Of a stretch of 64,000 bases of DNA, positions 21,927 through 48,181 are shown one piece after another. Position 1 is the first letter of the stretch. The number at the start of each line of letters is the position of its first letter. The notes beneath the pieces are model-generated. The model ran no database searches and was not told the origin of the DNA. It saw only the letters and a program-made list of their open reading frames with translations. Source of the stretch: an uncultured Ectothiorhodospiraceae bacterium (GTDB lineage: Bacteria > Pseudomonadota > Gammaproteobacteria > S012-40); the NCBI GenBank assembly GCA_945787125.1, contig CALZHW010000002.1, forward strand, positions 22,900-86,899, read 5' to 3'. The position numbers and the translations under genes are program-made.

Positions 21927-23084
21927 TTAGCGTTTGTAATTGTCTGCTTTAGCAAATCCACTGGCGGTTTTGAGGTTCTTGGCGGTAGCCAGAAAAGTTT
22001 TGAATAAGTTGGCACCGCGAAAGTCTGACTTGTGGATATCGGCTCCACGAAAATTGGCATGGCGTAAATCCGCCATCAGGTAACTGGTCCACTTACTATT
22101 GCTAGTCGATAGATTAGCATGCTGCAGTGAAGCGCGTTTGAAGCTAGCGCGAGACAAATTACTGCCACTTAAATTTGCATGATTTAATTTACTGAAAGTA
22201 AATTTCGAGAACTCTAAATTACTGTTTGAAAAATCACTGTAGTTAAACGTACTGTCTTCCAGGATTGACTCTCTAAAATCGCTTTGGCTAAAATTGCCGT
22301 TGATTATTGTGCTACCTTCTATGGTTGTGCCGATTGCATTACTATTTTCAAATTTCGAATCTGAAATTTTACTTTGAATAAACTTGGAGTTAGTTAATAA
22401 GCTTGCAGAGAAATTAGTGTTCGTAATACTAGCGTAATTGAATTGCACACTTGTCATATTCGCTTTTTCAAAATTACTGTCCGTGATTTTAGTTTTAGTG
22501 AAACTTGAGAGCCTCATGGTATTATTGGAAAAATCAACCCGGTTTATTTGACTATAATCAAATGATGCTCTAAAAAAATCTGCTTTCACAAAGGTTAATT
22601 TTTCCAGTTTGGCATTTTTCAGGCTGACTCTGCTTAGCAGGGTATTTTCAAACCGACTATCAATGATGACGCTGTCATTCATTCTTGCGCCGTTGAATTT
22701 AACATTTTCGAAGCGGCAGTTTTTAAATAGGGCATGAGATAAGTCGGTGCCAGAAAAATCGATGTCGGTAAATGTTGTATTGATAAATTGGGTTTTCTTC
22801 ATCGAGCTTGCATGAAAGATCACATTGTTCAGTACCGCGTTTTCGAAACGGCTCTCATTGAATGTATTAAAACTAAGGTCTGCAAAGGTGATCGTTTTGT
22901 TAGAAAAGTTAATGCCCGACATGTTGACGCGCGAAATTTTAATATCTTCTGATGCAGGTGACAATCGTTGCTCAACATCCGCTTGGCTTAGCTGTGGATA
23001 AGAGGCATTCGGGTCAGTATTGCGGCTCATACAGGCTGATAATAATGCTAATACAGCAACAACTACGAGCAATGTATTTTTCAT
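21927..23084 (-). CDS. Pentapeptide-repeat lipoprotein
   Basis: Lipoprotein signal MKNTLLVVVAVLALLSAC. The body is almost entirely A(D/N)LxF-type pentapeptide repeats (ANLSGSNLSRASFKRASLQHANLS...). Confidence 0.8.
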   Translation of the reverse strand: MKNTLLVVVAVLALLSACMSRNTDPNASYPQLSQADVEQRLSPASEDIKISRVNMSGINFSNKTITFADLSFNTFNESRFENAVLNNVIFHASSMKKTQFINTTFTDIDFSGTDLSHALFKNCRFENVKFNGARMNDSVIIDSRFENTLLSRVSLKNAKLEKLTFVKADFFRASFDYSQINRVDFSNNTMRLSSFTKTKITDSNFEKANMTSVQFNYASITNTNFSASLLTNSKFIQSKISDSKFENSNAIGTTIEGSTIINGNFSQSDFRESILEDSTFNYSDFSNSNLEFSKFTFSKLNHANLSGSNLSRASFKRASLQHANLSTSNSKWTSYLMADLRHANFRGADIHKSDFRGANLFKTFLATAKNLKTASGFAKADNYKR

Positions 23085-23099
23085 TGTGTTTTTACCATA

Positions 23100-24266
23100 T
23101 TATTTGAACCGTATGCTACCTGATTTTTTCGCATCCTCTAAACCGATCACAGTCTCAAGATTTTTCACTCGCTTCATATTGGCTTCTGTTAGATTACTCT
23201 CGGTAAATATTGTTCCATTTAGGTCTGCCTCCTGAAAATTGACTCTCTCCAGGTTCGCATCGGTAAAATCAACCGCCTGCAATGAAGCATTTAAAAAGCT
23301 AGATTGCAGCAAGTTTGCGCTTTTTAACAACGTTTTCAATAAACTGGCTTTTACAAAACTGGTATTTTCCAAGTTTGCCCCGGTGAGGGAGGTTTCATGT
23401 AGTTCCGCAAAGTTTAAATTGACCCCAGGCATATAGGCGTTTTCGAAAACAGCATTGTTTAAAATTGCGTGCTCCATATTAGCTTTGCTGAAATCAGGGC
23501 TAATCAATTCGCTATTCTGAAATAGACTGTTCTGCAAGTCTGCTTTTTTAAATATAACATCAGTGCCCAAAGTATATGAGAGATTGGCTTCATGTAATAT
23601 GCAATGGCTAAAGTCACTGCGAGTAAGATTGCTGTTAGAAAGATCAGCCTCTTGAAATTTAGAATTAACAAACTGAATGTTTGATAGTTCCGCTTGCTGC
23701 ATTGAAGCAAACTTAAAATTCGTGTTAATAACTACCGCATTGTGCATATTGCTATTTTGCATGTTGCTTGCTTCAAATAGCGATTCTGAAATTTTCACAG
23801 AAGTCAGGTTTGCATTGATTAGATCAGCGTTGCTGACTATTGTTCTTATAAGAACCGACCCTTGAAGATCTGCGTTATCCAGTTTTGCGGCAGATAAATT
23901 GGTGTTTTTAAAGTTAGCATTTCGAATTATCGCGCCTGATAAATTTGCGTTACTTAAATTGGTGTTTTCCAAATTGGCGCGACTCAGGTCAGCGCCACGG
24001 AGGTCGGCGCCTTGCAAATTTGCGTCGCTTAAATCTGTTTTATACAAGTAGGCTGACGCCATTTTTGCGTTCTGCATGTTTATTCCGCTCAGATTTAATC
24101 CCGATAAATTAGCTTCAATGAAATTGATGCTACGCTCATTAGCGTTGAGGCGTTGTTTTATTTCCAGTTGGGTTAATGGAGAACCGATGTTAGGATTGCT
24201 CGGTGGTGGTATATGCGCACAAGCGTTGACCGTCAGGCAGATGCACAGGAGTGTCATTTTTTTCAT
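23100..24266 (-). CDS. Pentapeptide-repeat lipoprotein (paralog)
   Basis: Lipobox LTVNAC. Pentapeptide repeats run throughout (ANLQGADLRGADLSRANLENTNLSNANLSGA...). It starts 9 nt after the tsaB stop. Confidence 0.8.
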   Translation of the reverse strand: MKKMTLLCICLTVNACAHIPPPSNPNIGSPLTQLEIKQRLNANERSINFIEANLSGLNLSGINMQNAKMASAYLYKTDLSDANLQGADLRGADLSRANLENTNLSNANLSGAIIRNANFKNTNLSAAKLDNADLQGSVLIRTIVSNADLINANLTSVKISESLFEASNMQNSNMHNAVVINTNFKFASMQQAELSNIQFVNSKFQEADLSNSNLTRSDFSHCILHEANLSYTLGTDVIFKKADLQNSLFQNSELISPDFSKANMEHAILNNAVFENAYMPGVNLNFAELHETSLTGANLENTSFVKASLLKTLLKSANLLQSSFLNASLQAVDFTDANLERVNFQEADLNGTIFTESNLTEANMKRVKNLETVIGLEDAKKSGSIRFK

Positions 24267-33067: not shown

Positions 33068-33456
33068 GGTAATACTCCCTCGTTTCTCTCAAAAAATAAT
33101 TTTTTAGGTAGTTGTTGAGTTGGAAGTTATCGGGATTCCACAGTAAAAGCAAGTGAAATGGTGTTTTATTTGATAATTATTTCAATTAATTCAATAGCTT
33201 ATATCCGAGTGGAATACTCAACTTTCGCCGTGGTTTGTGACCCACGGCTGAGTTAATACATATTCTGCTCGCCGTAAATACGTGCTTAATCTTCCGGAGG
33301 CAGAATAGGTAAATCAATAAATAAGAAGTCGAAATATTTTACAAACTTAACCTAATTACTAACTAAAAATTTTTAAATCATTGTTTATAATAATAATTAT
33401 TCATTCATTAATTCATTTACAACTTGCAAGTGAATGTCAATCAAGTGGGGCTACCA

Positions 33457-33939
33457 ATGAAATTTTTTATGATGACTGTTTTGTTGTTAATAACAGGTGA
33501 CTTATTTGCGTCAAACCTGGGGTTGAAGAAATCTGAGAAAGAGCTTCAATGTATGGCGTTAAATATCTATTTTGAGGCACGTGGTGAGCCTGTTACAGGT
33601 CAGCTTGCGGTGGCGATGGTTACCATGAATCGAGTAAAATCAAAACGCTTCCCCTCAAGTATTTGTGGCGTAGTTTGGCAACGAAAACAATTTAGCTGGA
33701 CACATGATGGCAGAAGCGATCAGCCCACTGATCAAAAAGCCTGGAAGCTAGCTAAAGAAATTGCTGATTTTGCATATTACAAATATGACAAACTAAAAAC
33801 AATGAGCAACGGTGTATTGGATCTGACAAAAGGTGCGTTACATTATTATGCTCCTAAGTTTGCCAATCCATATTGGGCGAAACACAAGCAGGTAACACTG
33901 GAAATCGGTGGACATGTATTCCTTGCGGAGAATTCTTGA
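33457..33939 (+). CDS. Cell wall hydrolase, SleB-like (Hydrolase_2 family)
   Basis: Signal peptide MKFFMMTVLLLITGDLFA. It has the family motifs ALNIYFEARGE and QFSW. The start is placed at ATG 33457. Confidence 0.75.
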   Translation: MKFFMMTVLLLITGDLFASNLGLKKSEKELQCMALNIYFEARGEPVTGQLAVAMVTMNRVKSKRFPSSICGVVWQRKQFSWTHDGRSDQPTDQKAWKLAKEIADFAYYKYDKLKTMSNGVLDLTKGALHYYAPKFANPYWAKHKQVTLEIGGHVFLAENS

Positions 33940-34145
33940 TTTTAATGGCATTTGAATAATTAAGGTTGTTCAAATGCTTTTTTGCTGCCTTAACTGTCTC
34001 TCGATTTATGCCACCAACGCTTGACTTTCATCTTAAATAATTTCCCAATATCGAGTACTCATTACATTCATGCAATTCTAAATACTTCAAACCCCGAGTA
34101 AAATTGCTATATAATTTATCGACAACTAAAATAGGGGTGTAGCCA

Positions 34146-36155
34146 GTGCCTTATCAATCTAGCGAACAAATTGTAAACGCATTTCCGCGATACCCTGAGG
34201 CTGTTGTCCAGGCCAGCGCACATGATCAACAGGGTAGTTTTCAAAAAGCGATAAAACTCAGTGCAATAGTTTTCACTATTGTTCTGCTGCCATTGCTGCT
34301 TTTTACTTTTCTGCGACCTGCTATATATCTCAGTGAGGCCAGTCTGCTCATTGATAAGTCCAGCAAACCTTCAGAAACAAACTTGCAAACATCGCATAAC
34401 CTATCGATAGAAAAAAGCGTGCTGCTATCGCAAGAGTCACGGTTGAGTATCATTGACGGATTAAGACGCAGCCAATTAATTTCCGCTCAGTCCGCTATGG
34501 ACGTCAATCAGTTGTCAGAGATGCTTTCTGTTAACATCAACGGCAATAATTTATTGGAGCTGCAGGTCAAGGGAGAAGAGAAAGACTTATTGTATCCGAT
34601 TATGGAATTATGGATAGGCAACTACGGACAAAGACGTCTGGCAATGAATGAAAATTCTACTGCCAATCTGGACAACGAACTTGGCGCAAGCATTATTGAA
34701 CTAGAGAGCAAGGTTGAACAAAAAAGAGCAGAGCTAGTAACATTTCGTGAACTGAATAATATTGAATCCACCCAACGTGAAGAAAATCAAATTGTAGCTC
34801 GACTTAAAAAAATTACCGAATCCTTAAACATTGCACAAGACGAACGAGTAAACAATGAAGCACAGCTCAGCTCATTGCACGCTTCAATCCAACGTGGAGA
34901 GCCTATTTTATTGCCCGCTGATCAAACTGCATTGGCGCGACTGGGGCAACGTTCGATGGAGTTGCGGGAGCAAATTGCCGATATTGAAAGCCAATATACG
35001 CCGGCATTAGTGGCAATTACACCCAAATTGCAAGCAGTTTACGATAATTATCAAGATATCCAGCGCGATATCAATAATTCTCGGCAAGCAGCACTCGAAC
35101 AGGCACTAACTGAAGCGAAAAATCGTATTGAAAACAGTGTATCGATTATCAATAAACTAAAAAAACAACGTACTGAATTGAAACAAAAAGCATCAGATTT
35201 TAATTCGAGTTTCGTTAAATATACGGCGCTCGAAGAAGAGTTAAATCAACTTAGCGAAATATTACGCCAGTCAAAAACGCAACTTGCTGAAAATGAATCT
35301 CGCAGCAATGCCAGTGATGTTAAAGTTGAAATATTAACTATGCCAAGTCAGCCTGAATCACCAGTCTCTCCTCTGTACACACGAGATACCTTGTTGAGTA
35401 TTGCGGCGGCAAGTCTATTGGGGTTGGTCGTCGGGTTGTTCTATTTCGTATTGATGCGCCCCAGGAGCCCGCTGCTCGTGCCGCATAAACAACAAATATT
35501 TTATCCTGTGGCAGGTGCCGGCATAGTTAGTAACCCTGGTATTGAAGGGTCAACGGTCAATCATCTAAACCATCATCTAAATCATGCAGCGTCAATAAGC
35601 TTACCCCACTTTGCTCAGCGTGAGGTTTCAGAGTTCGAACTTCAGTCGTTATTGGAAGTGAGTGATCCACTTACACAATTATTAATTTATATGATGATCG
35701 CGGGAAATAATCCAGATGAGATGAGCCAATTGACCTGGCACGATATGCTAACTAATGGGGGATTAATACGTCTCCCTGAAGATTTTATATTGCATTGGCC
35801 TGTTGAAAATAAATTAACTCAACTAGTCAGTAAATTATCGAAAAGTGAAGATGAAAGTCATTATGTCTGGTCTGATTCAAAAGCTCATCCAATGGATGTT
35901 AATCAGTTAAACACACTAATTAGCGATGCAGCGCATGATGCAGGTTTAACCGAACCTCAATCATTTAACTTGCAGGTATTACACTCAAGTTATCTAGCAT
36001 TTCTAGCGCGTCAAGGTTTGCGGATATCATCGCTAAGTAAATTAACCGATCAAATCACAAATGAAAGCAAAGAAACATTAAGCCGCCTCTCACCGCCCGG
36101 CAAGAAAAAGTCTTTTGCAGAAATTAATTTATTGCATCCGATTATTGAGTGTTAA
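34146..36155 (+). CDS. Polysaccharide co-polymerase (Wzz/chain-length-determinant)-like membrane protein with an extra C-terminal domain of about 220 aa
   Basis: The topology is TM1 (IVFTIVLLPLLLFTFL), a long coiled-coil periplasmic region, then TM2 (LLSIAAASLLGLVVGLFYFVLM), as in PCP proteins. The C-terminal extension has no Walker A. It ends with LHSSYLAFLARQGLRISSLSKL, which is reminiscent of a tyrosine-recombinase helix. Confidence 0.55.
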   Translation: MPYQSSEQIVNAFPRYPEAVVQASAHDQQGSFQKAIKLSAIVFTIVLLPLLLFTFLRPAIYLSEASLLIDKSSKPSETNLQTSHNLSIEKSVLLSQESRLSIIDGLRRSQLISAQSAMDVNQLSEMLSVNINGNNLLELQVKGEEKDLLYPIMELWIGNYGQRRLAMNENSTANLDNELGASIIELESKVEQKRAELVTFRELNNIESTQREENQIVARLKKITESLNIAQDERVNNEAQLSSLHASIQRGEPILLPADQTALARLGQRSMELREQIADIESQYTPALVAITPKLQAVYDNYQDIQRDINNSRQAALEQALTEAKNRIENSVSIINKLKKQRTELKQKASDFNSSFVKYTALEEELNQLSEILRQSKTQLAENESRSNASDVKVEILTMPSQPESPVSPLYTRDTLLSIAAASLLGLVVGLFYFVLMRPRSPLLVPHKQQIFYPVAGAGIVSNPGIEGSTVNHLNHHLNHAASISLPHFAQREVSEFELQSLLEVSDPLTQLLIYMMIAGNNPDEMSQLTWHDMLTNGGLIRLPEDFILHWPVENKLTQLVSKLSKSEDESHYVWSDSKAHPMDVNQLNTLISDAAHDAGLTEPQSFNLQVLHSSYLAFLARQGLRISSLSKLTDQITNESKETLSRLSPPGKKKSFAEINLLHPIIEC

Positions 36156-36299: not shown

Positions 36300-39200
36300 T
36301 TAATTTGAAAAGACCCTGGCTCTACTGAATTTTAACAATACTGCCAAACTTAATAATAACAACCATGATAATGAAGCGCTTGCACTCGTGCCATTCGAAA
36401 CAATTACGTTATTATTGTCATTGGATCCATTCGTATCAAGACTATCTTCGGTAGTTTGATCTGGCGTGTCTGGTAAATCGATTTGAATAGCAGCTTCTGA
36501 TGCGGCTATCACAGCCACTTTTAAAGCGGCAGTATCTGTCCCACCTTGACCATCATCAATGTGATAATCAATCAGATCTTCACCAATAAAGTTGTCAGGT
36601 GGTGTATATCGAACAATACCTTTGTTGTTCACGGATACTGTACCGCCTTCTCGGCTATTACTAGAGTCTATCGACACTTGTAAGTTGTCACGATTGGCAT
36701 CGTTATCGTTTGATAAAACATTGATGCTGATGGCCATGTCGTTCGGTGTTATCGCTGTATCATCCGTAGCAATCGGCGCTTCATTTACTCGCTCTGCAAA
36801 GCTGATGCTTACTGTTGCAGGCTGTGACTCCACAAGACCATCAGTGACAGTAAAATCAAAACTTACATTTCCACTTGCGCTTGCATTTGTATCAGTAGTG
36901 TAGATAAGGCTGCCTGTTGCTGGGTTAAACTCTATAATTTGACCTTCTTCAGGTTCATTTTTTATTTTGTAAAATAGCACGTCATCATCTGCATCACTTG
37001 CAACTAATAATATTTGTATGGATCGCTCTATGTCTAGTGATAATTCCATAGAACTTGCTTCGGGAGCGCTATTTGACGTGGTTGGTAATATTGTAATGTT
37101 AGCAGTACCTTCGAGTGATCTTGCCTCTCCTTCATCGAGCTTTGTTTGCAGGTTTACAACATTAAAACCAAAACTATCTGTATTATCTAAGCCTTCTTTA
37201 GCATGATATAAAAGTTCACCTGAATGCTCGTCCAACCAAAGTATTTCACCTTTCTCGGCAGATAAGTCTGGCTGCAGACTAAATGAGAAATCGCCAATAG
37301 CGTCACTTTGTAAATCAATATTTGCGATTCTTCCAGCTTCAACAATCACTGCGGGGTTTGTTAAGGCAATAAGATTGCTGGTTTTAAAATAAATAATCAC
37401 AGAGGCTGGTCGCGAGAGCAGCCCACCGGTGTCTTCTACTGCATAGGTAAAACCATCAGACCCGCTCGCATCAGCGTTGGCGATATAAGAAAAACTCCCA
37501 TCAGGACTAATTGTAATATCTCCCATCACAGGTTCAGTCCCAATGATATATCGCAATTCAGTTTGCTCTGGGTCATAGGTGAGTTTCGAGTGAGTTGAGG
37601 TGGATAAACCGCCACTCAAATCAGAAATTAAAGTTTCGCCTGGTAAAACAAGAAATGATTGAGAATAAGCAGTCGGTGGTAGGTTTTGTTCAGTAATTTC
37701 TACCATGACAATTGCCGTTTCAGAATGAATTGTTTGATTTGTTGTGGGATCGATAACACTGACGTTATAGCTAAACCCAGTTTCGCCTATAAAGCCTGAT
37801 ACGGGAGTAAAATATATAAAATCAATCATACTCGTATTGTTTGCCTGGCTGCCTTTGCCTACATAGACTGAAACAGCATTTTGATCCAACGGTTGTACAG
37901 ACGTTATATTAAATGTCGCAGCGCCACGTTGTAATGGATCATTATCATTCGCGAGTAAATGTGGAAGCGGTATAATGATCTCTTCATAAAGTGCTTTTAG
38001 TATGCGATCATTTCGCGCGATGGGTAAGTTATTTTTATTGCTGGAAACCCCTTTAGTATTAGCCGCTGTTTGAAATGCACCTGGATCACAGGCATCAACA
38101 TCTCGACCAAATCCACGTTGGTCGTTTGCGTTGCAATCGATACCTGAACCTATCGCGTTGCCGGATAATAATGCGAGAGTGGGTGGGAATGTGACATCGG
38201 GTAATTCGTTACCCGGTATACCACTATTGTTTGTTAGTGTTCCAAGGATGGCGCCACTTGTAGTAGCGTTTGTATTCGGCTTGGCATTCGGCTTAGCGCT
38301 CGTGGTTGACAATAAACACGTGCCGCTATCATCAACATTACCACCAATATTGATAATATAATTATTAAAGCTCGTGGTGCCATTGCAGGCATCGGTGCTT
38401 GAAGCGTCTCCTACAATAGTATTCAGTAAAGAAATTCGCCAAGGCAAGTTTGTTTGGGGATCAGTATTTGCTTCCGTGACATCCAAATATATTTCACTAC
38501 CACCAGTGGCGTCGGTAGAGGTGGGTGTACCGACACCCCCCACGGAGGAACTGGGATCCGCAGAGTTGCCAGTTATGGTAGTATTTATAATATCTATAAT
38601 TCTGCCAGAATGATAAATACCGCCGCCTTTATTCGGCAATCGCGGCAGCCCATTATCCAGGGCCTGGTTATTAGTAAGAGTCACATTTGACAATTGCAGT
38701 GCGGCCAGGCCCAGATTATAAATTCCACCTCCGGCGAATTCAGCTTGATTATTATCGATAGTTGAGTTGCTTACAATCATACCGTAATCAGTAAGTTGTC
38801 GCGTCGTAAAATTCCAGTTGCCGGAAACGTTAAATATCGCTCCTCCCATAAAAGCTTGATTACCTGTGATTTGGCTATTTTCTATAAAAACTTGTTCGTC
38901 TCTGAGTTGTGCAATTATTGTTTGACTAAAAATAGCACCGCCAATTTGAGATCTATTATTCGCAATAATGGATCGACGTATCGTTAGCTTACCACCCATG
39001 TTGGTAATGGCCCCGCCCATACCACCCCCGATAAATTGACTGTTATTATTGAACTGTCCATTCTGTCCACCCGTTCTTCCAATAAAAAAAGACGAGGAAT
39101 TATCGCGAATCACACTATCTTCTATAGTTAGTACGCCGGCATTCATTATTCCAGAGCCGCTGATTTCATCATAGTTGGAGTATATTTCAACATGACGAAG

Positions 39201-39836
39201 TATGACGTTGGGGCGCGTCGTATCGCTATTGGAAAATTCGTTACCTGGATCAAACGTGGTGTTGATTTCAGGCGTTGTGGAGCCTAAACCCGTCGGTTGA
39301 AAAGCATTACCATTGTTTACAATACATTTGATACAAATTCCACCACCACCTGCTCGGGTATCTGTCCCACGGCCACCGGTTATAGACAGATAATTCAGTT
39401 CAATATTGATTACCTTGCTTTCTGAAAGTATGTGCATCACCCGATCGGAAGCACCACTCGCATCAATCACTACAGCATTTCTGTCTGATGCATTGCCATT
39501 TATAGTCAGATGGTCAGTAATATCCAGGTCTCCGCTGGCAGACAAATTTTCTTGGGTTCCAGGAATAGTGAGTCGATACACGCCGTCGTTGAGATTGATG
39601 ATGTCAGGTAATTCTTCACCATTTAGTATGGTATTAGCATACGCATTAGCTTCCATAATGGCAGCACGTAGGGAGCAAGGGGATCCCGATAAAGCAGTTG
39701 CACAAACGCCGTTACCAGGTGCGGAATCGACCGCATCGAGTGTTGTATTGACGGTGAAAGTTGTTGCGACGGCCTGGAAAGAAAAAAGCACGCAGCACGA
39801 AAGAAGTAAAACGACCTTGTTTTTGCTAGTCATCAT
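36300..39836 (-). CDS. Giant secreted CSLREA-domain / parallel beta-helix / cadherin-like (VCBS-type) repeat protein
   Basis: 1178 aa. Signal peptide MMTSKNKVVLLLSCCVLFSFQAVA. The N-terminal CSLREA-type motif is GSPCSLRAAIMEANA. The middle holds many beta-helix repeats (GGGIYNLG, NNQA). The distal part holds cadherin-like repeats (DDTAITPNDMAISINVLSNDND...YTPPDNFIGEDLIDYHIDDGQGGTD). The C-terminus is a hydrophobic-basic tail. Confidence 0.8.
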   Translation of the reverse strand: MMTSKNKVVLLLSCCVLFSFQAVATTFTVNTTLDAVDSAPGNGVCATALSGSPCSLRAAIMEANAYANTILNGEELPDIINLNDGVYRLTIPGTQENLSASGDLDITDHLTINGNASDRNAVVIDASGASDRVMHILSESKVINIELNYLSITGGRGTDTRAGGGGICIKCIVNNGNAFQPTGLGSTTPEINTTFDPGNEFSNSDTTRPNVILRHVEIYSNYDEISGSGIMNAGVLTIEDSVIRDNSSSFFIGRTGGQNGQFNNNSQFIGGGMGGAITNMGGKLTIRRSIIANNRSQIGGAIFSQTIIAQLRDEQVFIENSQITGNQAFMGGAIFNVSGNWNFTTRQLTDYGMIVSNSTIDNNQAEFAGGGIYNLGLAALQLSNVTLTNNQALDNGLPRLPNKGGGIYHSGRIIDIINTTITGNSADPSSSVGGVGTPTSTDATGGSEIYLDVTEANTDPQTNLPWRISLLNTIVGDASSTDACNGTTSFNNYIINIGGNVDDSGTCLLSTTSAKPNAKPNTNATTSGAILGTLTNNSGIPGNELPDVTFPPTLALLSGNAIGSGIDCNANDQRGFGRDVDACDPGAFQTAANTKGVSSNKNNLPIARNDRILKALYEEIIIPLPHLLANDNDPLQRGAATFNITSVQPLDQNAVSVYVGKGSQANNTSMIDFIYFTPVSGFIGETGFSYNVSVIDPTTNQTIHSETAIVMVEITEQNLPPTAYSQSFLVLPGETLISDLSGGLSTSTHSKLTYDPEQTELRYIIGTEPVMGDITISPDGSFSYIANADASGSDGFTYAVEDTGGLLSRPASVIIYFKTSNLIALTNPAVIVEAGRIANIDLQSDAIGDFSFSLQPDLSAEKGEILWLDEHSGELLYHAKEGLDNTDSFGFNVVNLQTKLDEGEARSLEGTANITILPTTSNSAPEASSMELSLDIERSIQILLVASDADDDVLFYKIKNEPEEGQIIEFNPATGSLIYTTDTNASASGNVSFDFTVTDGLVESQPATVSISFAERVNEAPIATDDTAITPNDMAISINVLSNDNDANRDNLQVSIDSSNSREGGTVSVNNKGIVRYTPPDNFIGEDLIDYHIDDGQGGTDTAALKVAVIAASEAAIQIDLPDTPDQTTEDSLDTNGSNDNNNVIVSNGTSASASLSWLLLLSLAVLLKFSRARVFSN

Positions 39837-44479: not shown

Positions 44480-45049
44480 ATGAAGAATATAACTATCTTA
44501 ATTACTGTGGTTTTGCTCAGTTTTTTATATGCAGTCTCAGCAAATGCTGGTTCAAATAATGTATTCAATACGAAATTAAGTGGCGCTCAACAAGTGGTTG
44601 CCACCGATGTCAATGGTGTTTCAATACCGATCAAAGGGCTTGTGACCGGTGCCTTTGGTAAAGCGGCATTTCGCATATCACCCGACCGAAGTATGATTGC
44701 TTACAAGCTTAAGGTGGCCAATACGGCGACACCCATATTTATGGCGCATTTACATCTTGGGCCAAAAGGACAAAATGGTCCAGTTGTATTGTGGTTATAT
44801 GGCAACCGGGGGGTTAATGCTAATTTCCCACGTGACGATGGTGAATTCACGGGAAAAATTGAAGGAACATTGATGGCTGATGCATTTGTCCCGCCCACTG
44901 ATTCGGAAGGCCGAGTATTGATATCGACATTTGAAGACTTGGTTGCAAATATTGCCAATGGAAATACCTATATCAATGTCCATACAGTCGCTCATCCTGG
45001 CGGTGAGGTGCGAGGTCAAATGGGGCAACGCCATCATGGCCGCCATTGA
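44480..45049 (+). CDS. Secreted CHRD-domain protein
   Basis: Signal peptide MKNITILITVVLLSFLYAVSANA. CHRD-like motifs are AHLHLGPKGQNGPVV and VHTVAHPGGEVRGQ. Confidence 0.7.
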   Translation: MKNITILITVVLLSFLYAVSANAGSNNVFNTKLSGAQQVVATDVNGVSIPIKGLVTGAFGKAAFRISPDRSMIAYKLKVANTATPIFMAHLHLGPKGQNGPVVLWLYGNRGVNANFPRDDGEFTGKIEGTLMADAFVPPTDSEGRVLISTFEDLVANIANGNTYINVHTVAHPGGEVRGQMGQRHHGRH

Positions 45050-45677: not shown

Positions 45678-46876
45678 TTATGTATGGTTATCAGACTTGC
45701 CATCTTTGTCATAGTCATGATCATGACTATGATCACCGGATCTATTATCCTTGTCGCACTTGTCAGAGCTACTATGGCTGCCGTGACGCCCGTCCTTGTT
45801 ACAACTGCCGCCAGAAGAAGGTGGCATCATATCAATGGGACACATAAACCCACCGTTACGGCTATAACCTTCAATGACTTCAAAATCACCGGCAACCAAC
45901 CCAGGACCAACAGCTACGGAACAGCTGGTATGAATCCTTGCATTGACACTGCCGTTTACACTAATGCTGATTTCAGTGCCTAAGGTTGCCTTTTTGTCCG
46001 TTCCAGAGAAAGTGAAGTGCTCGCCGGGTTGAACCATTGCATCAAATACCACGCCGTCTTTTTTCTGTTCAACGACCACATGCGCCGCCTGGCTGCCATT
46101 ATATTTCAGCGTCAGTTTGGTGACTTTGCCATCACAGTCCTTGCAGGTATCACCAGGGATCATTTTTTCAAAGTAACCAAAGTCAATCGTTACATCACTA
46201 CTAAAATCATTGGGTAGCGTGACGTCAAATGGGCTATTGTTACTATCGACTGAGCCATCCAATCCAACCATACTCGCTGTTGGAATAACGCCGGCCAGTA
46301 GTGAATTAGGATCCACTTCAATACTATACTCACCTGCACAAAGACCGACGAACTCATAAAATCCGCTTGAATTTGTCATCGCTGTAGCAACTTCGACATT
46401 TTGGCTATCCCTTAGAATAACCTTAACATTAGAGATGCCCATTTCAATCAAGTCCTGGATCCCGTTCTCGTTTTCATCCAACCAAACATAATTACCGATA
46501 TGGCCGGCACAAGGCGAGTTGTAACCAAAATCAATGCTTAGATTTTCAGAGCTATCTGTTACCAGAGCAACAGCAGTGCTGTTTTCATTACTGTCAACCG
46601 CTGGGTCAGATCCTTGAAGCACGGGGCTAGCAACATAATCCGCAGGCAGTGTTGATACATCCACTTCTACGATGTAGTCATTGGCACATAAACCCATGAA
46701 CTCATAAAAGCCATTGGCATCGGTGGTTGTGCTGGCGATTACTGAATTTTGACTGTCTTTCAGATTGACCGTCCTGGTTGGCCGGTGGTAAAAGAGTCGA
46801 GAGTTGCGCTAATTGCTGCCGGGCTGAGTCCGAGCAGAAGTGCTATTAATATTAACTGCGGATATATTCGATGCAT
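45678..46876 (-). pseudogene. Secreted SdrD-B/Cna-B-type repeat protein with His/Asp-rich tail, interrupted by a 1-nt frameshift
   Basis: A signal peptide (MHRIYPQLILIALLLGLSPAAISA) is encoded from ATG 46876 and stops at 46761. The downstream frame continues ...RTVNLKDSQNSVIASTTTDANGFYEFMGLCANDYIVEVD, and is open only below the TAG at 46809..46811. Three Cna-B-like units share GFYEF.GLCA.(D/E)Y..EVD. The frames must be joined between 46764 and 46808. Confidence 0.6.
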
Positions 46877-47111: not shown

Positions 47112-47776
47112 TTAGCTATTGTTGGTTTTACGACGACGTAAACCCAGCATGCCAAGTAAACCGACGCCAAACAGCATTAATGCACCGGGTTCTGGTACCG
47201 TAACGGTTGGTGGCGTATTACCAGTAGTTGCGAGAAGATCCAGCGTCAAATCAGATGCTGGACCACCGTCAATGGTCAATGACAGCAAGTCAATAGAGCT
47301 GAAATTTACACTAGCAAAATTAGAGAAAGCTACAGTTTGCGTGCCGACGGCTGCACTGGAAAAAATAAAGCTGTCAGAACCGCCGAAGGTATCTTCCACA
47401 AATAAAATTAGATCGACATTACCTTGATCGATGCCGAGAATTTCAAAACTAAAAGTGTTGTCTATTAAACCTTCGACGAAATCAATACCACCAAGACCGC
47501 CGCCCCAAGTGATTGTGCTGATTGCTGGTGTCTGTGGGCCCGAACTGTGGCCGAAGAAACCTGCTATAACACAGCTGAGGCGCTAAGCGGGCCAGGAGAT
47601 GTCATGCCAATTGTACGAGATCCTCCTAATGCGCCTGCGTAGGCAACGGTGTCATCGGCAGCTGGAACAGTCACACTCTGATCGCCACCATTAAAATCAT
47701 CGATTACAAGGGCATTGGCATTACCTGCAATCCCTATTGCTGCAAGCATTGAAATACCTAATATGTGTTTTTTCAC
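47112..47776 (-). pseudogene. PEP-CTERM sorting-domain protein interrupted by a frameshift
   Basis: The N-terminal frame starts at GTG 47776 with an AGGAG RBS (MKKHILGISMLAAIGIAGNANA...) and stops at 47564. The C-terminal frame (...GGIDFVEGLIDNTFSFEILG...) ends in a canonical PEP-CTERM signal, VPEPGALMLFGVGLLGMLGLRRRK. The two frames overlap only within 47569..47586. Confidence 0.6.
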
Positions 47777-48181
47777 TTGAAATACTCCTGTAAAATATAT
47801 GTTTTTATTCAAAATTTGTGAGTATTTAGTGTCTGCCCAAATTTATTCCATTTATTAATATAGATTTAAGAAACATGATTGGCGTTCAGAGCTATCTACT
47901 CGCGACCAGTTAGACAAAATTTGCGCCATAATTTTATTTTCTTTTTTTATCAGTAAGTCAAGGAATATTTTAATTTTAGAGTAATTATTTGGTGGGCAAT
48001 TTGTAAAAAAATCCGACAATGTAGAGGGTGTCGACCGGGTCACATGAGTTTACGTTTTAGGTGCTAGTCAGTATGTCAAGAGCCAATTTATTCGCTATTC
48101 GAAGATAGTATAGTGAAAATCCACGTTTTTAGAGTGTGGATTTTTACTTCAATTGCGAGCCCATAATTTGAACTGTCGCAC

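Follow-up and report, generated by a model that had tools for sequence, protein, structure and literature searches.

Polysaccharide co-polymerases (PCPs) are central to the assembly of capsules, exopolysaccharides (EPS) and O-antigens, and the control of their oligomerisation by cytoplasmic domains is an active question, for which the phosphorylation cycles of Wzc and the 'pseudo-kinase' of GumC are the current examples. Co-polymerases of the EpsF/TIGR03007 type, known from PEP-CTERM loci, are paired with separately encoded kinases. The present analysis concerns a gene located on a stretch of 64,000 nucleotides (hereafter the window; contig CALZHW010000002.1, positions 22,900 to 86,899) from the genome of an uncultured Ectothiorhodospiraceae bacterium. 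Its product, referred to as the window protein, is predicted to combine a PCP with a cytoplasmic domain that derives from tyrosine recombinases and has lost their active site. It is very probably a divergent representative of a chromosomally encoded, conserved family of Beta- and Gammaproteobacteria, in which a PCP is joined to an Xer-derived domain via a disordered linker. On balance, a PCP whose dead recombinase domain serves as a non-catalytic protein-protein module is the preferred explanation of the data.

With Wzc and ExoP (PCP-2a), the window protein shares the membrane topology, a homologous module reaching from the first transmembrane (TM) helix across the periplasmic region to the second, and a folded cytoplasmic domain behind TM2. 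In contrast to these proteins, which carry a P-loop bacterial tyrosine kinase (BY-kinase), it features a recombinase fold without Walker A motif or C-terminal tyrosine cluster (only three Tyr occur after residue 470), and its gene does not reside in a locus of the wza-wzb-wzc type. GumC from Xanthomonas is likewise a PCP with a non-catalytic cytoplasmic domain, which was proposed to stabilise the oligomer (PMC9800525), and several members of the family described here bear the NCBI name 'GumC family protein'. However, the cytosolic domain of GumC is kinase-like and encoded in the gum operon, whereas a recombinase-like domain encoded by an orphan gene is found here. Among named families, TIGR03007 (XrtA-system determinant) and TIGR03017 (EpsF) score best against the PCP part, and the host encodes a PEP-CTERM protein; unlike the window protein, which scores far below the equivalog cut-off, these relatives reside in exosortase loci and are devoid of a C-terminal recombinase-like domain. 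Regarding the cytoplasmic part, Xer-type recombinases (XerA, XerC/D, IntI) possess the homologous catalytic-domain fold, and remnants of their boxes I and II are recognisable. In contrast to them, the domain analysed here is acidic instead of basic, has lost the catalytic residues, is not accompanied by a core-binding domain and is tethered to the inner membrane. The phage repressors MrpR/YopR and SroF also represent exapted, catalytically inactive tyrosine-recombinase folds, but they are soluble DNA-binding proteins with both recombinase domains, whereas a single acidic domain is attached to a membrane protein here.

The N-terminal two-thirds of the window protein are, as judged from sequence, a PCP of the Wzc/ExoP/GumC type. 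Hydropathy analysis revealed exactly two TM segments (residues ~38–58 and 416–437), and 232 aa (residues 438–669) follow beyond TM2, behind a positively charged RPR. The full-length AlphaFold2 (AF2) model was computed from a shallow alignment of three sequences and reached a mean predicted local distance difference test (pLDDT) value of 64, with 70–94 in the periplasmic part. It comprises TM helices at residues 28–56 and 413–436, a small alpha/beta base, two very long helices (146–250 and 257–389), a disordered linker (~438–485) and a folded C-terminal domain. Foldseek searches with this model returned Wzc, WzzE, KpsE and FepE as top PCP matches, beside generic coiled-coil matches. Furthermore, the family profile was aligned to a Wzc-type protein, i.e., one with Wzz, GNVR and kinase Pfam domains, with an hhalign probability of 98.5% (E 2e-15); this alignment extends from TM1 to TM2 and stops exactly there. 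A Pro-rich motif ahead of TM2 is a hallmark of PCPs. Within the corresponding segment, PSQPESPVSPLYTRD, the 67-member family alignment shows no variation at P409 and hardly any at Y411, R413 and D414. Among these 67 members, TIGR03007 matches 60, EpsF TIGR03017 56 and Wzz (PF02706) 35. The window protein itself showed weak matches over residues 40–437 to TIGR03007 (E 3.9e-8, 32 bits vs. a cut-off of 278.85 bits) and TIGR01005 (E 1e-7), both far below the cut-offs. A comparison with the chain-length determinants of PEP-CTERM loci (XrtA system) had been suggested beforehand; based on the TIGR03007 score, membership in this family was rejected.

At the family level, the C-terminal domain is clearly a true homologue of the catalytic domains of Xer-type tyrosine recombinases, according to profile searches and structure models. 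A domain profile built from 35 sequences retrieved XerA (4a8e, E 6e-17; 5hxy, E 1.8e-15), IntI4 (E 1.3e-14) and XerD (E 4e-12) from the PDB, in each case over the whole catalytic domain. PF00589 matches 38 of the 67 family members (best E 1.2e-15), and the NCBIfam models for XerA, XerD, XerC and IntI match up to 47 of them. For the window protein alone, the S. aureus integrase 3nkh was obtained from the PDB (E 0.004), and PF00589 yielded E 4.9e-4 at 20.4 bits, compared with a gathering score of 27.1. The AF2 model of the domain (pLDDT 92.1, predicted TM-score 0.88) was compared with the PDB by means of Foldseek, and the best 50 matches are all tyrosine recombinases or recombinase-fold repressors (MrpR, YopR, SroF), with query-normalised TM-scores of ~0.55–0.64. 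Kinase matches to the window protein were found neither in Pfam nor in NCBIfam. These results agree with the original prediction, made from the sequence alone, which had described a PCP topology (TM helix, long periplasmic region, TM helix), the lack of a BY-kinase and its Walker A motif, and roughly 220 extra cytoplasmic residues. Both peptides quoted there for the C-terminal part (AGNNPDEMSQLTWHDM and NLQVLHSSYLAFLARQGLR) are present, the resemblance to tyrosine recombinases devoid of catalytic residues was substantiated by family profiles, fold and active-site residues, and a recombinase-like fold, the lack of which had been named as counter-evidence, was recovered.

Catalytic positions were assigned by alignment to E. 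coli XerD, the sequence of which was verified at its six catalytic positions. At the positions of the catalytic residues R-K-H-R-H/W-Y, the window protein reads N-D-Q-H-Q-L, and thus none of the six is retained; among 151 family representatives, none has the complete set. Arg I is kept in 7/151 representatives, His I in 4/151 and His III in 12/151, and Lys does not appear among the common residues at its position (A, E, gap, P, S, R, D), the GKG hairpin being shortened. Arg II (123/151, 81%), the adjacent His (112/151) and the nucleophile Tyr (114/151, 75%) persist in most members, while Arg I, Lys and His I are lost in nearly all of them. Arg II and Tyr show a weak tendency to be retained together (odds ratio 2.4, p 0.05, without phylogeny correction), and the window protein has lost Arg II, the adjacent His and Tyr as well. 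Moreover, the C-terminal domain is acidic in all 67 aligned members, with an isoelectric point (pI) of 4.24–6.47 (median 5.08), a net charge between -2 and -17 and no pI above 8. The window protein's domain has a pI of 5.16 and a net charge of -10 (bulk charge, not surface electrostatics), whereas pI values of 9.1 (XerD) and 9.4 (Cre) were obtained for recombinase catalytic domains.

The word-index homology search yielded three full-length relatives only, and family size was determined by an exhaustive hidden Markov model search. This search resulted in 4667 matches at E<=1e-3, of which 363 reach E<=1e-30, counted as clusters at 50% identity. Among the 150 top-ranking clusters, about 140 represent proteins of 620–700 aa that are matched collinearly in a single stretch between TM1 and the C-terminus. 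With one peptide pattern, derived from a 22-sequence subset sharing LRHTYxA[FY]L, a scan of genomes identified 80 species-level loci in Beta- and Gammaproteobacteria. Carriers belong to the Burkholderiales (Rhodoferax, Pseudorhodoferax, Variovorax, Paucibacter, Rubrivivax), to Nitrosomonas, Nitrotoga and Thiobacillus, and to the Chromatiales (Thiohalocapsa, Lamprocystis). Plasmid searches, for which the window protein and P0009 served as queries, detected no member. The window protein matches the family collinearly from TM1 to the C-terminal PAL-type tail (cf. Nitrosomonas europaea CAD84499.1 and Paucibacter WP_339593689.1) and keeps the family motifs A.DAGL (596–601), L.RQG.R (620–626) and sPPG (649–652), including the conserved residues D598, A599, G600, R622, Q623, G624, R626, P650 and G652, as well as P665. 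Together with its homologue P0002, to which it is 40% identical, it forms a rare divergent branch sharing 21–30% identity with the rest of the family.

Mean pairwise identity amounts to 33% for the C-terminal domain, 32.5% for the periplasmic coil, 26% for the base region and 20% for the linker. Nei-Gojobori ratios of non-synonymous to synonymous substitution rates (dN/dS), calculated for close pairs (dS 0.1–0.5), range from 0.07 to 0.25 for the C-terminal domain and from 0.08 to 0.19 for the PCP part in most such pairs. These sequence comparisons indicate that the C-terminal domain is under purifying selection as strong as that acting on the PCP part. Database names of members include 'GumC family protein', 'Wzz/FepE/Etk N-terminal domain-containing protein', 'integrase', 'ExoP' and 'hypothetical', and UniProt lists CAD84499.1 as 'Phage integrase:Chain length determinant protein'. 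The fusion architecture has thus already been recorded by automatic annotation. Neither NCBIfam nor Pfam contains a dedicated model for the fusion, and full-text literature searches returned no publication on it. The fusion proteins form a populous, conserved family and not an isolated case; they are present in databases by name but unstudied.

The features of the gene and its surroundings are compiled in Table 1. The GTG start codon is preceded by a Shine-Dalgarno-like element (AGGGG) ~9 nt upstream and is supported by the alignment of the first residues with the N-terminus of P0002. Based on consensus matches, the gene looks monocistronic, because the interval to the upstream hydrolase gene contains a terminator-like hairpin followed by a promoter-like site.

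Table 1. Positions of the fusion gene, its predicted protein segments and selected neighbouring features in the window (TM, transmembrane; AF2, AlphaFold2; ORF, open reading frame).
Feature	Residues	Position	Strand	Remark
Whole coding sequence, PCP fused to pseudo-tyrosine-recombinase domain	1-669	34146..36155	+	669 aa plus stop
Terminator-like hairpin closing the upstream hydrolase gene		33947-33978		consensus scan only
Promoter-like site TTCAAA-18-TATAAT upstream of the fusion gene		34086..34115	+	consensus scan only
N-terminal cytoplasmic segment	1-37	34146..34256	+	disordered, poorly conserved (11-21% identity)
TM helix 1	38-58	34257..34319	+	hydropathy, AF2
Periplasmic PCP domain	59-415	34320..35390	+	~360 aa; alpha/beta base and long helical hairpin
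Pro-rich PCP motif PSQPESPVSPLYTRD	400-414	35343-35387	+	end of periplasmic domain
TM helix 2	416-437	35391..35456	+	hydropathy, AF2
His-rich cytoplasmic linker	438-485	35457..35600	+	48 aa, disordered; pLDDT <30; ~20% identity
Cytoplasmic pseudo-recombinase domain	486-669	35601..36152	+	184 aa; Xer-type catalytic-domain fold
Box I remnant AGNNPDEMSQLTWHDM	519-534	35700..35747	+	Arg I -> Asn; conserved Gly520 and Glu525 kept
Box II remnant NLQVLHSSYLAFLARQGLR	608-626	35967..36023	+	His I -> Gln, Arg II -> His; family-specific L.RQG.R
Former nucleophile helix KETLSRL, then conserved sPPG tail motif		36069..36110	+	Tyr -> Leu645
SleB-like hydrolase		33424-33939	+	Pfam Hydrolase_2, signal peptide, TTG start
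Cadherin/Big_9 adhesin		36300-39836	-	1178 aa
Two tandem pentapeptide-repeat paralogues		21927-24266	-	385 and 388 aa
CHRD-domain secreted protein		44480-45049	+	
SdrD_B + DUF7467 protein		45678-46697	-	His/Asp/Lys-rich C-terminal tail
ORF with PEP-CTERM signal		47112-47399	-	95 aa
ORF with signal peptide		47564-47812	-	82 aa

The gene content of the window is of the house-keeping type (pnp, carAB, greA, rmuC, gyrA, serC, pheA, tyrA, aroA, cmk and rpsA). By its GyrA, which shares at most 88% identity with any other sequence, the host can be placed only as an uncultured gammaproteobacterium. As stated in the original prediction, the fusion gene lies between a SleB-like hydrolase gene and the gene of a giant adhesin. 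For evaluation of the context, 81 loci were considered, comprising the 80 related loci and the window. The fusion gene stands alone in 29 of them, and each Pfam family occurred in at most 4–5 proteins, counted over 56 upstream partners on the same strand and 138 further neighbours. The commonest neighbour families are SLT+Sel1 (5), methyltransferases (4), UvrD (4), GGDEF (4), Wzy_C (3) and VanZ+heparinase (3), and a nucleotide-sugar dehydrogenase cluster is located within 10 kb in 11 loci. The missing conserved locus is itself unusual for a PCP. A surface-polymer locus, as previously suggested from the two adjacent genes, is unsupported, since conserved neighbours are lacking and the gene looks monocistronic; likewise, the proposed check for nearby exosortase or EPS genes remained negative within the 64-kb window. 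The idea that a giant convergent gene is a conserved partner was also rejected: among the large proteins encoded downstream, those of Pseudorhodoferax are molybdopterin/cytochrome c oxidoreductases, others are non-ribosomal peptide synthetases, and none is an adhesin. The reading as a defence system was dismissed because PADLOC returned coiled-coil noise only (LmuB, JetC).

Further observations concern the neighbourhood. The SleB-like hydrolase is encoded here in a gammaproteobacterial metagenome-assembled genome, and an unrelated peptidoglycan hydrolase (SLT+Sel1, e.g., L070:9013-9912) is encoded immediately upstream of the homologue in five related loci. A fusion of VanZ, DUF4962 and heparinase II/III (~1100–1160 aa) is encoded directly upstream on the same strand in L038 (2705-6184) and four similar loci, which belong to a betaproteobacterial subclade. 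The adhesin possesses an N-terminal CSLREA domain, a choice-of-anchor Q domain and Big_9/cadherin-like repeats, and ends in the sorting-signal-like SWLLLLSLAVLLKFSRARVFSN (hydrophobic helix and basic tail), which is devoid of a PEP motif. The 95-aa ORF ~11 kb from the fusion gene terminates with the canonical PEP-CTERM sorting signal VPEPGALMLFGVGLLGMLGLRRRKTNNS, and the 82-aa signal-peptide ORF lies just upstream on the same strand. Both (47112-47812, minus strand) are probably fragments of a single PEP-CTERM gene that a frameshift or stop has interrupted, either through an assembly error or in a pseudogene. Encoding of a PEP-CTERM protein indicates that the host uses an exosortase. PEP-CTERM proteins are encoded within 10 kb in 8 of the 81 loci (raw count, without control set), suggesting that at least some carrier genomes use exosortase systems. 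Elsewhere in the window, both pentapeptide-repeat paralogues carry lipoprotein-like signal peptides, and the gene of the CHRD-domain protein adjoins that of the SdrD_B + DUF7467 protein. In high-GC homologues (L013-L092), long antisense 'shadow' ORFs of 110–410 aa inside the homologous genes cluster like conserved proteins. This high-GC artefact, which could mislead ORF-based context analyses, was removed from neighbour clustering by a filter on GC content at third codon positions.

For the dead recombinase domain, a function as non-catalytic protein-protein module is proposed, at the place where Wzc has its BY-kinase ring and GumC its 'pseudo-kinase'. In that position it would keep the PCP oligomer together or regulate it, or else offer a docking site to a cytoplasmic partner, and it would thereby tune the output of a polysaccharide pathway with genes elsewhere in the genome. 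As precedents for this mechanism, GumC was discussed as a phosphorylation-independent 'pseudo-BY-kinase' scaffold (PMC9800525), and the XerD catalytic domain is the docking site for FtsK-gamma (PDB 5dcf, among the domain matches). The specific mechanism of scaffolding or oligomerisation is put forward tentatively. Slightly more doubtful is the wider view that a domesticated tyrosine-recombinase catalytic domain serves a widespread orphan co-polymerase as its control module in the cytoplasm, i.e., a third evolutionary solution to the regulation of PCP ring assembly after the Wzc BY-kinase and the GumC pseudo-kinase. The ring might be built by means of the cyclic trans-packing seen in C-terminal tails of recombinases, or a residual Arg/His/Tyr pocket might act as a ligand or phospho-switch. 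Several observations weigh against the preferred explanation. Taken alone, the window protein stays below the Pfam thresholds for both Wzz and Phage_integrase, without any match to PF02706 at E<0.1. No glycosyltransferase, Wza, Wzx/Wzy or exosortase gene is present in the 64-kb window, and, because conserved neighbours are missing, the tie to polysaccharide synthesis is one of homology alone. Moreover, the persisting Arg II, His and Tyr residues hint at a residual pocket function, which a pure scaffold leaves unexplained.

The orphan location without conserved EPS neighbourhood, unusual for PCPs, would fit an envelope scaffold unrelated to polysaccharides, in which the PCP fold is reused to span the periplasm, e.g., for cell-wall remodelling or adhesin display. 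The peptidoglycan hydrolases encoded just upstream, which belong to two unrelated folds (SleB-like in the window, SLT+Sel1 in five loci), point in the same direction. Nevertheless, this alternative is considered unlikely: hydrolase associations concern less than 10% of the loci, the terminator-like hairpin and separate promoter-like site intervene between the hydrolase and the fusion gene in the window, and the best sequence relatives are EPS chain-length determinants. Two further alternatives, each somewhat less probable than the envelope scaffold, draw on the residues that persist in most family members. In one of them, the domain would be a docking or substrate domain, and phosphorylation of its conserved Tyr by a separately encoded BY-kinase would control the PCP. 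The former nucleophile Tyr is indeed kept in 114/151 representatives although catalysis is impossible, separate kinases are employed by relatives of the PCP part (EpsF/TIGR03007 systems), and Wzc has a documented tyrosine-recombinase substrate, HK022 Int (Kolot 2008, as cited in PMC9800525). However, Leu or Phe occupies the Tyr position in the window protein and P0002, BY-kinase genes are not enriched near family members, and a Tyr cluster is absent. In the other, held to be equally improbable, a pocket of Arg II, His and Tyr would bind a phosphate-bearing small molecule, such as a nucleotide second messenger, an undecaprenyl-diphosphate-linked intermediate or a sugar phosphate, and signal its occupancy to the PCP. 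Selective retention of these three residues while other catalytic residues are gone, and GGDEF proteins as occasional neighbours (4/138), are in line with such a pocket; the weak co-retention of Arg II and Tyr is not, and the window protein lacks all three residues yet keeps the family-specific motifs. Since Arg II, the adjacent His and Tyr are all replaced, both the phospho-acceptor and the pocket model are weakened for the window protein.

DNA binding is the least likely among the rival readings as phospho-acceptor, ligand pocket, non-polysaccharide envelope protein or DNA-binding protein. A membrane-tethered DNA-binding or regulatory module would couple the envelope status to transcription or anchor the chromosome; the fold belongs to a DNA-binding enzyme, MrpR (8a0a), YopR (8bpz) and SroF (9rd5) are among the structural matches, and dead recombinases acting as repressors are known (PMC10516654). 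Against this stand the acidic C-terminal domains of all 67 members (pI at most 6.5), compared with the basic catalytic domains of XerD and Cre, and the loss of the DNA-contacting Arg I, Lys and His I in nearly all members. Furthermore, neither a core-binding (SAM-like) domain nor another N-terminal DNA-clamp domain is present between TM2 and the recombinase-like domain, where only a disordered linker (~45 aa) is found. As the domain is acidic and the core-binding domain absent, DNA binding and recombination are both unlikely. The original prediction of a co-opted DNA-binding or regulatory module is thus upheld with respect to a recombinase-derived module without catalytic residues, but not with respect to DNA binding. 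Some members are named 'integrase' in databases, which would suit a site-specific recombinase that is still active, or else a chance fusion, now decaying, to the remnant of a prophage integrase. This reading is refuted by the present data, given that 0/6 catalytic residues are left in the window protein and the full set in no family member, that the C-terminal domain is conserved like the PCP part (dN/dS 0.07–0.25), that more than 140 clusters from two proteobacterial classes share this architecture, and that plasmid-borne members were not found.

Relative to the known PCP classes, the recombinase-fused PCP represents a new variant, although the fusion itself is already visible in database names. 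These names are inconsistent, and the 'integrase' label is misleading for pipelines annotating mobile elements. The domain also provides an example of a tyrosine-recombinase domain in a non-DNA role, for which no published precedent was found in literature searches. Carriers of the family are environmentally important and include nitrifiers, methane- and sulfur-cycling taxa, as well as Rhodoferax and related Burkholderiales genera. With the kinase replaced by an inactivated recombinase, the family represents a natural experiment on what the cytoplasmic module of a PCP must do.

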